A DNA stretch of 64,000 nucleotides from Cladosporium halotolerans. Its lineage: Eukaryota. Below the pieces are notes generated by a model. It did not search any database. It had not been told where the DNA came from and saw only the letters and a list, made by a program, of their open reading frames with translations. The stretch spans positions 496,001-560,000 of the forward strand of contig NW_027191467.1 of NCBI RefSeq assembly GCF_011745625.1, written 5' to 3'. The stretch's first letter is position 1. Each line of letters opens with the position of its first letter. Shown one piece after another: positions 29,975-40,727 of the stretch. The position numbers and the translations under genes were made by a program.

Positions 29975-30765
29975 TTACCAGTCGTAAAGCCCATCAGAGT
30001 GTAAGAACTTGGAAGCCTCGCCGTCACGCTCGCCTGTAACAATGTTCATCAATCCCTTCACGGCCACGTCTGTAGGCTTCGCCCCGTTTTCTTCGGTGTT
30101 TGCTTTGCCCAGGTTGCTGACGGTGAAGCCGGGGCAGACAGTGAAGAACTTGACGTTATCGTCCTTGAACTCCCAGACGAGTTGAGCAGTGATAATAGAC
30201 AGGGCAGTCTTGCTCGCACGGTAAGGCAGAGCCGGAATTGCCGTGACCCAAGACGTATGGTCGAGCTTCGTCGCAACAGAACCCATGCCTGATGAGACGT
30301 TAATGACGCGCGCCGTCGTGTTGGACTTCTTCAAAAGATCTCCGAGCGCTTGTGTCAAGAACCAGACGCTTGTGGCATTGTTGTTGAAAGACTGTGTCAT
30401 ATTTTCGCGCGTCGGCTCTTCAAGTGCGATGGCAGCGTTGTTGATCAGGACGTCGAGGCGTCCGTAAGTGGCCTCGACATGCTTCGCAGCCGCGGCTATG
30501 CTTGCGTCGTCTGTCTGGTCCAGCTGCAGCATTTCGCAGGTGCCATTATACCCACGAGATTGAAGGTCTTTGACGGCAGCTTCGCCCTTATCGACGATCT
30601 GGAGCACACGAAGACGTGAAAGCCTCCTTTCTCCATCAACTGAGAAGACCATTCGAAGCCGATGCCACTGTTCGCTGTATATCATCAGCCTATCTGGACC
30701 TCGGACGTACTCTTATAATTGCACTAACCGCCAGTGATCATCACCAAAGTCTTATCGGTGGCCAT
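29975..30765 (-). pseudogene. Short-chain dehydrogenase/reductase with an apparent 1-nt frameshift near 30595
   Basis: Spliced N-terminus MATDKTLVMITG|ANSGIGFE...VCSRS is out of frame with VDKGEAA...DVLINNAA...NVSS...YRASK. Confidence 0.75.
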
Positions 30766-31285
30766 TGTATCGATCTTGGTGTGACGTTGTGTCTGATAGA
30801 TGAGCTCGGGAAAACAATTTGTATTGAATCGAAAAGTGATGGAACAATCTTGTAATTCTTGAATCAAGATGGGACGATGCAGTGTAATATACCCCGGTGA
30901 GAGCATCACAACAGAAGGAATGTCTCGAAGGATGCGTGGAACTTGATTGGTCACCTCAACAGTGCTTTGCGCATGTAAGCATAGCTTAAGTCCGACATCC
31001 GTGGGATTATCCATGGGCCGTGTGTCAGCTCTATCTTCAGAAACCCTTTCGACCACAGAGTTGATGCCACGCCAATGATCGGCCAGGTAGTCACCGAATT
31101 GCGCATCTTGCCTTCACGCCTCCCTATTATGTTCGACCGATCCTTGAAACCGACCTTGAAAATGTTCCGCAGACTTTTACTCTGTGCGGAGTTCCACACG
31201 CAGCGCGAATGAATCAGAATCTCTGCTGTCAAATTCTTAAGTGTGCGTAACGATTCATTCATTATGAGGGCTATCCAAACATATA

Positions 31286-37778: not shown

Positions 37779-38886
37779 GTGTTCCCACGGGCGCCCTCAT
37801 GTGGGCGATTTGTTAAGCATCGACAAGACCCATGACTTTGGCGATGCGAGGTCACGGTATTGCGTGGGAAGACGGGGATCTGGACTTCCGGGCCACTTGG
37901 GCGGCTCGCGAGCCCTCAGGGCATTCTTTTAGCGCGGGGTTTTGGCGTCTTGGCCGGGTCTGTCGCGCTCCGGGGAGTCCGCGGAACGCGTGGACATGAA
38001 GAAGAACGCCTGACATTTCACGTGATGAGCAGGACGGCATGCCGACTGAAACTCGATAGGTGGTGTTCGAGATCGTGGCTCTCAAGGCGCGCTCAGCTTT
38101 TGTGTTGTGAGCATCCATCGGTCTCGGAGGGCCTCAGGTAATCGAAGCAACACTTCAGGGCTTCGTACCCCAACCCTAACCCTGCGTACCCTACTCAAGT
38201 CTTGTTTGACAACTCTACACCAACCTTCTACACATTGCTGCATACCAGGGGTGATTAAAGGGCATTTGAGATATTCCTCAATGGTCTCGGCGTTGTTAAG
38301 TCTCATCTCGCGGCCTCTGTCGGTGACACACGGCCCATGACATGCCAAATTCCGCTGAGCACGATTACATCGAAGTGGAAGCCCACCTTCTGTTGCGTGT
38401 TTTGCTCCCCATTTGCAGTTCACTCCGGGTTGCGCATTGTACTGACCATTTGGATGGCCTGCATACAACGCCGGCGTCCTTCATGGAATCTAAGCTCAGA
38501 CGCTTTCGCCGATACTTCAAGTAGCGGCTCCGAAGAAACTAGATCCCCGGAAGCTAATGTAGACCGCCCTCCGGACCACACAATGTTACCCATCGAGAGC
38601 TCAGCTCTGTCGAAGCACTTCTGCCCAATTGAGATGTACCATGGAGCCTGACAGTAATCCTGGTTGGTCAGAAGGCAGGACGAGCTGAGAACGGACTCAG
38701 CTGGACGCTTTGTGTAATCTTACACTCACAAGCTATATAGGTCAACGGTCGTGCATCAGCAGCCCCGCAAGTCCGATCCGTGTGCTTCTCAACAGTGCAT
38801 GCGTATTATTACATTACTTCTGCCTATCAGCTACGTGGCGGTCACTCTACTCTTGATCACTGATCCCTCATACATGAACTACCGCG

Positions 38887-40727
38887 ATGGGCTCGGTTGG
38901 CACCAGGTTTCCTACTCCAGCGGTTTCAATAACCAAGCATCCCGCTACCTTACCCAGAAGCCCAATCGATGATGACATCGACAAAGAACGCGTCGCCGCT
39001 GCCGTGCTTCCTCAGCTTCTCGATCTGACCGCGGCTGATTTGACCGACAATGCCATTTGGCGGGACTCCTTGGCCCTGACCGGAACCTTTCGAACGTTCT
39101 TCAGCAGAGAGCTTGTCGCGAATACGTGGAGGCATCTCTGCAAGAAGAGCACGATACAGGAGCTCTCCATCACTGCTGGGTCTGCGCAAATCCTCCGCTT
39201 TGGTCCCGAGGCTTGCTGGCTGCAAGCGTCCTTCTCCTTCAGAACGCAGGGCACTTTCCCTTCGGTCTGTTCTGGAACCTTGGGGCTAGTGCCTCATGGG
39301 TACTCGTGGAAGATATGGCTGATCACTACTATCCTTGAGCAGCCGCTCGGATTCCCGGACGTCGACAAACTGGAACCAGGGCCCGCAGATACCGATCATC
39401 CAGGCTGCCTTGACTGCATCGTCATTGGTGCCGGGTTGGCCGGTCTTGATCTTGCCGGTCGATTGAAGTCCATGGGCCTCTCGTACATGGTGCTCGAAAA
39501 ATCTGTCGAGGTTGGCGACGTCTGGTCGAAAAACCGCTATGATTCAGTGAAGATGCACACTTCTCGGGACTACAATCAGCTTCCCGGCCTCCCCAAGACC
39601 TTCACCAAAGAAGACTACCCATACTACCTGGGCAGCGAAGATCTCGCAAGGGGCTTCAAAAGCTACGTGAAGACTTTCGGCATAAATGTGACGACCAGCA
39701 CAAGAGTCGACGCTGCGACATACGATGCCGCTTCCAAGACTTGGACGATAAGCGCCGAACGCGAAGGCACTGCACTACAAATGAGCGCTCGACATCTGGT
39801 GCTCGCGACGGGAAGCATGGGTACACGTCCAGTCACTCCCAGCTACATGAATCACGGCAAGTACCAAGGACACGCCATGCATTCCATCTGCTGGAAGAAC
39901 GCAAAGCCCTGGAAAGGCAAGAGAGGCGTGGTGATCGGCTCCGCCAATTCAGCCCACGACATCATCGCCGACATGGTGAGCGAGGGATTCACGTCTGTCA
40001 CTTTGGTCCAGCGCAGCAAAACCTGGGTCCTCCCGGCCTCTACCTTCGGCGCCCTGGTCGATCCCGTATTCAACCCAGACACGCCGTCGGAAGTCTCCGA
40101 CCGCATCCTCCTCGGCAACCCCTTACCGATCCAACGTCTGATCGCGATGGAGGGCATTCGCGCGTGCGCAGATAAGATACCCGAGTACTTCGAGCGTTTG
40201 GAAGCCCAAGGCTTCAAGACTGAACGCTATGGTGATTTGTGGGGCATACTGTGCGATCGAGAGGGTGGACACTTCTTCGACGTGGGGTCCGGTGAACTCA
40301 TCGCCGAGGGCAAAGTCAAAGTCAAGAGCAACGCCTTGCCCTTAGCGTACACGGAGAGCGGACTCTCTTTCGAGGATGGAACCGAGCTCGATGCAGATGT
40401 GATCGTCTTTGCAACTGGCTACAAGGGCGACATGAAAGAGAATGCGAAGCGTATCCTCGGTGAGGAGGTGGGAGAAAACCTGGAGGAGTTCTGGCAGTGT
40501 GATCAAGAGGGCGAGATCCGCGGCGCGTGGCGGGACACAGGTCGTAGGTTGCGCTGCGTCGTCTTTCAGTTTGCTACACCACAGGACTAATGCACCTCAC
40601 AGATCCTGCACTCTGGTACACGGGTCATGGCTATGCTCACGCTCGTTACTATTCACGATTTCTCGCTATGCGCATCAAAGCTGACGTTGAAGGACGGCCT
40701 ATCCCTCAGTGGTCTGGATCATGCTAA
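38887..40727 (+). CDS. Class B flavin-containing monooxygenase with N-terminal extension (type II FMO/YUCCA-like), 1 intron
   Basis: WRDSLALTGTFRTF N-terminal extension; GAGLAG (FAD); YQGHAMHSICW (FMO fingerprint variant); GSANSA (NAD(P)H); DVIVFATGY. Intron ~40544-40603, then HPALWYTG...RYYSRFLA. Confidence 0.9.

Follow-up and report, generated by a model that had tools for sequence, protein, structure and literature searches.

A 64,000-nucleotide stretch of the Cladosporium halotolerans genome (NW_027191467.1, positions 496,001-560,000, forward strand; hereafter the window, in whose own numbering all coordinates are given) carries a Zn2Cys6 regulator gene, a DUF3445 gene (DUF3445-A) and an aldehyde dehydrogenase (ALDH) gene that form, in most other lineages together with a permease gene, a real and apparently undescribed module. 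Our preferred reading, whose chances we judge to be about even, is that the regulator, DUF3445-A and the ALDH serve the nitrogen-regulated breakdown of a small amine via C-N cleavage by a haem enzyme. The initial annotation had described five contiguous genes at 29975-40727, namely a short-chain dehydrogenase/reductase (SDR), the ALDH, the DUF3445 protein, the regulator and a flavin monooxygenase (FMO), with no biosynthetic backbone gene among them. Pfam searches located all five genes, and found no polyketide synthase, nonribosomal peptide synthetase or terpene synthase among the large open reading frames (ORFs) of the window, in agreement with that description.

Gene models and transcription

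We used assembled RNA contigs as evidence of transcription; such contigs show that a gene is transcribed, and do not rank genes or compare conditions. Runs X3 and X4 are RNA-like, with spliced contigs, and X8 covers the regulator alone. Run X1 also spans the region, but none of its contigs has a spliced joint, and it may be DNA. The X3 contigs cover all five genes and are spliced for the ALDH, DUF3445-A and the FMO. Together, the spliced X3 and X4 contigs confirm GT-AG introns in these genes (six in the ALDH, five in DUF3445-A and one in the FMO), and with the contig-derived introns the ORFs of DUF3445-A, the ALDH, the regulator and the FMO are open. All five genes are transcribed somewhere; the contigs say nothing on co-regulation.

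The three core genes lie on the minus strand. The regulator (36399-37778) is a single-exon gene for 459 residues with Zn_clus and Fungal_trans_2 domains, and its transcript is unspliced in contigs of X3 (35881-37873) and X8 (35939-37845). DUF3445-A (33926-35386, ATG at 35386 and stop at 33926) encodes 393 residues in six exons, separated by introns at 34252-34308, 34379-34433, 34625-34684, 34760-34809 and 35197-35253. The ALDH gene (31286-33111) encodes 498 residues in seven exons, with introns at 31309-31366, 31488-31542, 32016-32068, 32433-32485, 32526-32579 and 32997-33052. The intron positions of both genes come from the spliced contigs.

DUF3445-A resembles the alpha subunit of dimethylamine monooxygenase

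Two exon pieces of DUF3445-A score 102.8 and 70.1 bits against the PF11927 profile, whose cut-off is 25. The closest named matches, from Cladosporium fusiforme (P0001) and C. inversicolor, are 80% identical over the whole protein, and identity within the orthologue group is 65-80% across three classes of fungi. A profile built from 17 full-length orthologues matched PDB entry 5LTE, the alpha subunit of the dimethylamine monooxygenase HODM from Pseudomonas mendocina, with an E-value of 8.4e-20. The AlphaFold model of P0001 (mean pLDDT 75) matched 5lte and 5lth in Foldseek with E-values of 5.8e-16 and 1.0e-15 and TM-scores of 0.69-0.71; the next match had an E-value of 0.026, and nothing else fell below 0.02. 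Judged by profile and predicted structure, DUF3445-A belongs to PF11927 and should have the fold of the solved HODM alpha subunit, although the two sequences share only about 21% identity.

Two histidines of the window protein, His229 and His236, recur without exception in the 17 orthologues; in the alignment with HODM they correspond to His194 and His201. Both of these HODM residues fall within its haem PAS domain, whose limits are given as 155-290 (PMC8694187). The blocks conserved with HODM alpha also include an R-x-E-R-Q-x-L-R-R-L-P-x-S motif. An N-terminal 19-residue stretch with a Kyte-Doolittle hydropathy of at least 1.6 occurs in 16 of the 17 orthologues and in the window protein, where it scores 2.08. 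We infer that DUF3445-A is a putative haem-binding protein with a predicted N-terminal membrane anchor. HODM itself is a four-subunit enzyme, in which alpha is joined by a reductase, a folate-binding subunit and a fourth subunit. Neither the window nor the main ORFs at eight fungal loci yielded genes for these three partners.

Fungi commonly encode DUF3445 proteins, and PF11927 as a whole is large: 2989 representative clusters match at E <= 0.001, and 131 do so at E <= 1e-30. The statement in the initial annotation that the fungal members are uncharacterised was borne out within the literature that we searched, in which we found no paper characterising one; subscription journals lay mostly outside this literature, and a report there is possible. 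The Aspergillus niger DUF3445 gene An08g07010 turned up in the searched literature only in a table of down-regulated genes.

The regulator, DUF3445 and ALDH genes stay together

Our synteny sample consisted of JGI metagenome contigs anchored on the 17-orthologue DUF3445 alignment, which yielded 30 loci that were searched with the window exons by tblastn. Fifteen loci reach at least 1.9 kb upstream of the DUF3445 gene, and in 13 of these the regulator gene lies immediately upstream in the same orientation. Grouped by best named match, the loci represent about ten lineages, of which about eight have the regulator-DUF3445 pair: two Alternaria-like, another from the Pleosporaceae, one Plenodomus-like, one Didymellaceae-like, two Cladosporium-like and one distant lineage (locus L014). 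Of the nine loci whose downstream flank reaches at least 4.4 kb, seven have an ALDH gene near DUF3445; the gene is absent from L015 and L030. Counted among the seven is L014, whose ALDH is a partial, diverged copy (L014:12300-15200) whose match to a complete linked ALDH is confined to residues 1-23 and 270-454 (41% identity); the gene may be decaying in this most distant locus.

In loci of the Pleosporales type, the DUF3445 and ALDH genes stand about 3 kb apart, and the interval holds a gene on the opposite strand for a permease of the APC superfamily (PF13520, E-value about 1e-42). The Atlas places this permease in clusters named amino acid, amino acid/polyamine and choline transporter. An APC permease stands beside DUF3445 in 13 of the 30 loci, and in most other lineages the module reads as a set of four genes that includes a permease of the amino acid/choline type. 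This component of the related loci had been missed in the initial annotation.

The outer neighbours vary by lineage while the module persists. The Alternaria-like loci are flanked by a peroxidase and a WLM protease, the Didymellaceae-like locus by an NRPS-like reductase, GH79 and NmrA genes, and L014 by an NLR gene. The flanks of L015 are ALG9-NAF1-FMO and a BTB protein gene, and this locus keeps the gene order of the window (ALG9, NAF1, FMO, regulator, DUF3445). Only L015 and L017, both Cladosporium-like, have the FMO gene (2 of 30 loci), and the SDR gene was found in none of the 30.

In named genomes, linkage was read from locus tags or consecutive protein accessions of the DUF3445 protein and the best ALDH match. 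The two genes are two apart in Paraphaeosphaeria sporulosa (OAG01412 and OAG01414), Karstenula rhodostoma (KAF2443070 and KAF2443068) and Alternaria viburni (J4E79_003068 and J4E79_003070), three apart in Anthostomella pinea of the Xylariales (CAJ2500217 and CAJ2500214) and five apart in Aspergillus nanangensis (KAF9888172 and KAF9888177). Nine more species have DUF3445 and ALDH on equally long contigs (Stagonosporopsis, Plenodomus, Periconia, Paraconiothyrium, Didymosphaeria, Curvularia, Lecanicillium, Penicillium bovifimosum and P. maclennaniae).

Judging from these comparisons, the grouping of regulator, DUF3445 and ALDH is more than chance. The data support co-conservation of all three across Dothideomycetes, and DUF3445-ALDH linkage also in Sordariomycetes and Eurotiomycetes. 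The cluster had been proposed to co-occur as a unit under its own Zn2Cys6 regulator. This idea stands for the regulator, DUF3445 and the ALDH and is not supported for the FMO and the SDR, which lie outside the co-conserved unit.

The linked ALDH belongs to the ALDH1/2 class

Three ORF pieces of the window ALDH match PF00171 with E-values from 1e-32 to 9e-61. Its best PDB matches are 4qet/5gtk, which places a Bacillus-type ALDH among the best, ALDH1B1 and ALDH2, and it contains a GQVCT motif, where we take the catalytic Cys to lie. The protein is thus classified, by its matches, as an NAD-dependent enzyme of the ALDH1/2 class. We built a tree of 59 rows from the window ALDH and 58 matches of 470-560 residues, selected from 122 candidates; shorter or longer rows were left out. 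The window ALDH falls inside a 30-row clade (support 100/99) that holds all 14 DUF3445-linked ALDHs, and generic ALDHs are placed elsewhere. Because of this placement, we regard the window ALDH as the ALDH of the module, even though L015 and L024 have lost theirs. The Aspergillus nidulans member of the clade, AN4126, appeared in the literature searched only in a table of NapA-dependent genes.

To our knowledge, ALDH1/2-class enzymes are not the usual fungal route for formaldehyde. The role in formaldehyde removal that the initial annotation had assigned to this enzyme is doubtful for that reason. An ALDH1/2-type partner suggests instead that the released aldehyde is more likely larger than formaldehyde, and a larger aldehyde would point to N-dealkylation rather than simple N-demethylation.

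GATA-factor sites are dense in the module promoters

We counted the HGATAR consensus, which we take to be that of AreA/Nit2-type GATA factors, and compared the counts with 300 shuffles and also per 1-kb window. A cluster of ten sites at 35254-36230 lies upstream of DUF3445-A, between that gene and the 3' end of the regulator gene. The upstream region of DUF3445-A proper (35387-36398) contains nine sites against a shuffle mean of 2.4, and none of the 300 shuffles reached nine. The upstream spacer of the ALDH holds six sites (33133-33806) against a mean of 2.3, a count that 7 of the 300 shuffles reached. Across the 64 kb, 18 of 630 1-kb windows contain at least eight sites; they fall at three places, one of which is the DUF3445-A promoter. 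In the related loci L001, L012 and L020, the densest 1-kb window of an 18-21 kb locus is the divergent spacer between the permease and ALDH genes (top 1-2%), and in L015 it is the DUF3445 upstream region. These site counts suggest that the module is probably under nitrogen control.

Proposed amine breakdown and competing explanations

On our preferred reading, nitrogen limitation would let a GATA factor act on the HGATAR clusters, and together with the pathway regulator and its inducer it would switch the genes on. DUF3445-A would work as a membrane-anchored haem oxygenase of the PAS fold. The absence of the bacterial reductase and folate-binding partners suggests that its electrons would come from the general microsomal redox chain. 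The enzyme would hydroxylate the carbon beside the nitrogen of a small imported amine, and the resulting carbinolamine would split into a smaller amine or ammonia, which is the nitrogen gain, and an aldehyde, which the ALDH1/2-class enzyme would oxidise to an acid. An aldehyde larger than formaldehyde suggests dealkylation, with choline-, betaine-, GABA (gamma-aminobutyric acid)- or polyamine-type compounds as candidate substrates.

Several observations weigh against this reading. Two flanked loci, L023 and L030, have no recognisable regulator orthologue upstream of DUF3445. The permease was not found anywhere in the 64-kb window. The closest relatives with sufficient flank (L015 and L024) lack an adjacent ALDH, and L004 lacks both the permease and the ALDH; the incompleteness of L004, L015 and L024 implies that the module is not obligatory. 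The ALDH matches of Fusarium are only 58-59% identical, and the single Fusarium sequence in the tree (P0218) is not placed in the linked clade. In Fusarium decemcellulare, a fused gene model suggests that the gene upstream of DUF3445 encodes an amidase and not the regulator. The GATA enrichment is a count of a consensus and not proof of regulation, and is missing upstream of DUF3445 in L012 and L014. We also found no regulator-binding motif shared by the promoters: no 8-10-mer was common to at least six of nine DUF3445 upstream regions, no gapped CGG/CCG pair occurred in at least seven of the nine, and 10-mers with one mismatch recurred in at most 5 of 13 regions, which is about chance level. 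The literature that we searched contains no biochemical data for any fungal DUF3445 member. As a separate observation at one of these loci, L030 carries a different Fungal_trans_2 regulator (a 630-residue ORF at L030:3621-5510, minus strand) in convergent orientation just downstream of its DUF3445 gene.

The incomplete module in L004, L015, L024 and L030 and the lack of a common promoter motif would be expected if the adjacency were inherited microsynteny without functional coupling, with genes that serve unrelated processes. We consider this very improbable, because the module persists amid flanking genes that are entirely different from lineage to lineage, the DUF3445-ALDH linkage recurs in three classes of Pezizomycotina, the linked ALDHs form a clade of their own, and GATA-site enrichment is common to the module promoters.

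The bacterial relatives bear on the chemistry. The fungal alignment gave no matches when scanned against prokaryote genomes. An alignment of eight sequences led to 80 bacterial loci, and we ran Pfam on 64 neighbouring ORFs from 23 of them. The nearest bacterial relatives are proteins of about 300 residues with no anchor, and their 23 loci show no conserved ALDH or permease context, which also counts against amine breakdown by the fungal module. No ALDH, permease or reductase recurred among the 64 ORFs; they include a CoA-transferase of family III (three loci), AMP-binding enzymes, Sel1 and one amine oxidase. Such heterogeneous neighbourhoods give no lead on the substrate. In the three loci with the CoA-transferase, all of Acetobacteraceae type (L052, L064 and L065), its gene lies directly upstream of a stand-alone DUF3445 gene.

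These varied bacterial contexts, the low identity to HODM and the absence of its partner subunits from the window and the fungal loci would also suit a real module with another chemistry. The haem protein could produce an aldehyde by oxidising some other small compound that is imported, perhaps through O-dealkylation or by hydroxylating an amino acid derivative, or could act as a haem-based gas or redox sensor that feeds the regulator; haem-binding PAS domains are described as mostly sensors (PMC8694187). This alternative is unlikely, in our view, though it deserves to be taken seriously. The APC/ACT-type permease, like the density of GATA sites, speaks for a nitrogen compound, the one family member with a characterised function is an amine N-demethylase, and an ALDH partner suits an aldehyde-releasing enzyme better than a sensor.

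For nitrogen-regulated amine breakdown, the conserved context of regulator, transporter and ALDH turns an orphan fungal family into a testable pathway. In filamentous ascomycetes, a single-subunit, anchored HODM-like enzyme fed by the microsomal electron chain would then act with its own regulator, permease and ALDH to cleave a C-N bond of some common environmental amine. No eukaryotic pathway based on this enzyme family would have preceded it, a claim that we advance tentatively, as the balance leans somewhat against it. If the reaction is indeed oxidative N-dealkylation, fungal amine use would gain a third enzyme type in addition to amine oxidases of the copper and flavin kinds. Such a reaction might account for the consumption of plant- and soil-derived methylated or quaternary amines by moulds, and would show how a bacterial haem enzyme of several subunits was reduced to a simpler, anchored form in eukaryotes.

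The FMO and SDR are probably neighbours of the module

The FMO gene (38887-40727, plus strand) encodes 593 residues in two exons (38887-40543 and 40603-40727) separated by a contig-supported intron at 40544-40602, and matches FMO-like and Pyr_redox_3 in Pfam. Its best PDB match is 8acs, JsFMO from Janthinobacterium svalbardensis, with an E-value of 3.5e-49 over residues 177-538. Baeyer-Villiger monooxygenases follow at about 1e-17. Entries 5gsn and 2xvi, FMO chains that we take to be bacterial trimethylamine monooxygenases (Tmm), match weakly, with E-values between 2e-7 and 9e-4. The window FMO is thus, on sequence comparison, an N-extended type II enzyme that resembles Baeyer-Villiger monooxygenases and is not of the Tmm type. 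It shares with JsFMO an N-terminal extension of about 175-185 residues, and has the motif YxGxxxHxxxWK in place of FxGxxxHxxx[YF][KR] (PMC10028610). The extension sequences of the two proteins did not align, and the window enzyme is fungal. Type II FMOs that have been characterised act on ketones, by Baeyer-Villiger oxidation, and on sulfides, not on trimethylamine (PMC10028610).

The SDR gene (29975-30765, minus strand) is of the classical type, matches adh_short with an E-value of 2.6e-23 and is frame-shifted at 30595/30596 in the assembly. Contigs of the related runs X1 and X3 have one base behind 30595 that is missing from the window sequence. In the assembly, the TGxxxGIG motif shares a frame with the first exon but not with the remainder of the gene, and the extra base would restore the register. 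The frameshift, which had escaped the initial annotation, would reflect either an assembly error or a pseudogene.

The full five-gene proposal holds that the FMO oxygenates a tertiary amine, that DUF3445 N-demethylates the product, and that the ALDH and SDR clear the formaldehyde, all under one regulator. It draws support from the contiguity of the genes, all of them transcribed in X3, and from the divergent arrangement of FMO and regulator. The transcripts of these two genes are separated by only about 380 bp, as the regulator contig ends at 37873 and the X3 contig of the FMO starts at 38250, about 640 bases before the first in-frame ATG at 38887, which gives the FMO a long 5' leader. The layout is common to the window, L015 and L017. 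Nevertheless, we consider the five-gene pathway improbable. The FMO and SDR are largely or wholly missing from the 30 loci, and the best FMO match lies 23 locus tags from DUF3445 in C. fusiforme and, in P. sporulosa, on a contig that differs in length from that of the module. Named homologues of the FMO come mainly from Mycosphaerellales and Cladosporium, a spread different from that of DUF3445-A. The spacer between regulator and FMO has HGATAR counts at or below background, with two sites against a mean of 2.7 in the window and none in L015. The enzyme classes also fit poorly, since the FMO is of the Baeyer-Villiger-like type II, far from the weakly matching Tmm chains, and the ALDH is not of the kind that we would expect for formaldehyde; the SDR, moreover, is frame-shifted.

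The FMO and SDR are probably lineage-specific neighbours acquired in the Cladosporium-like lineage and not parts of the module. The retention of the divergent FMO-regulator layout in three Cladosporium-like sequences may nonetheless indicate lineage-specific recruitment of the FMO. A first step by the FMO and a place for the SDR in the pathway are therefore not borne out. The broader idea of a regulated amine pathway survives in reduced form: the unit of DUF3445, ALDH and regulator, the permease and the GATA sites fit the use of small amines as a nitrogen source, whereas the five-gene version is not supported.

A second DUF3445 gene and the surrounding region

A second PF11927 paralogue, DUF3445-B (46377-47852, plus strand), lies outside the module, directly after ALG9, and is absent from the initial annotation. 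It is a single ORF that matches the whole Pfam profile (E-value 2e-95, 319.7 bits), is 44% identical to P0001 and has an N-terminal hydrophobic stretch. In comparison with DUF3445-A, AVCLPGFW is replaced by AILLAGFW and VPHY by VPGF, and only the first of the two conserved His residues is retained. Its position directly after ALG9 accounts for the fused "Alg9-like mannosyltransferase + DUF3445" models in public records and for the name "mannosyltransferase" on DUF3445 records. Another of the window's three densest HGATAR clusters (46000-47200) lies upstream of DUF3445-B and extends into it, from which it follows that both paralogues may be nitrogen-controlled.

The densest HGATAR cluster of all, with up to ten sites per kb (6100-7900), lies between a GH64 beta-1,3-glucanase gene (3874-5649, minus strand) and an MFS transporter gene (7596-8402, plus strand). 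The five genes are bordered by a cellobiose dehydrogenase gene and an AA9 gene at one end and by NAF1 and ALG9 at the opposite end. At 26165-29762, immediately beside the SDR, the cellobiose dehydrogenase gene (cytochrome and GMC domains) adjoins that of the AA9 lytic polysaccharide monooxygenase. Cellobiose dehydrogenase and AA9 enzymes are a familiar redox pair for the attack on cellulose.

Comparison with known systems

HODM alpha (5LTE/5LTH/5LTI) is the closest relative of known function, in family, fold and the two aligned His residues. The fungal protein differs in its low identity and in its N-terminal anchor, which HODM alpha lacks. Its genetic partners are also different, namely a Zn2Cys6 regulator, an APC permease and an ALDH in place of the co-encoded subunits of the bacterial enzyme.

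In its logic, the module is closer to the prn cluster for proline utilisation in A. nidulans, which combines a Zn2Cys6 regulator, a permease, an oxidising enzyme that produces a (semi)aldehyde, an aldehyde dehydrogenase and nitrogen control by a GATA factor. The components differ in that the module has a haem protein of the PAS fold instead of a flavoprotein oxidase, a permease of PF13520, and an ALDH1/2-class enzyme instead of a pyrroline-5-carboxylate dehydrogenase. The bacterial carnitine oxygenase operon CntAB, which includes a malic semialdehyde dehydrogenase, a transporter and a regulator, works in a similar way to the proposed module: a quaternary amine is imported, an oxygenase breaks one of its C-N bonds, and the ALDH encoded with it oxidises the released aldehyde. 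Its oxygenase, however, is a two-component enzyme of the Rieske type, unrelated in sequence and fold, and it is encoded in a bacterial operon. By analogy, the module appears to follow the logic of known fungal catabolic clusters and of carnitine oxygenase operons with a different enzyme family.

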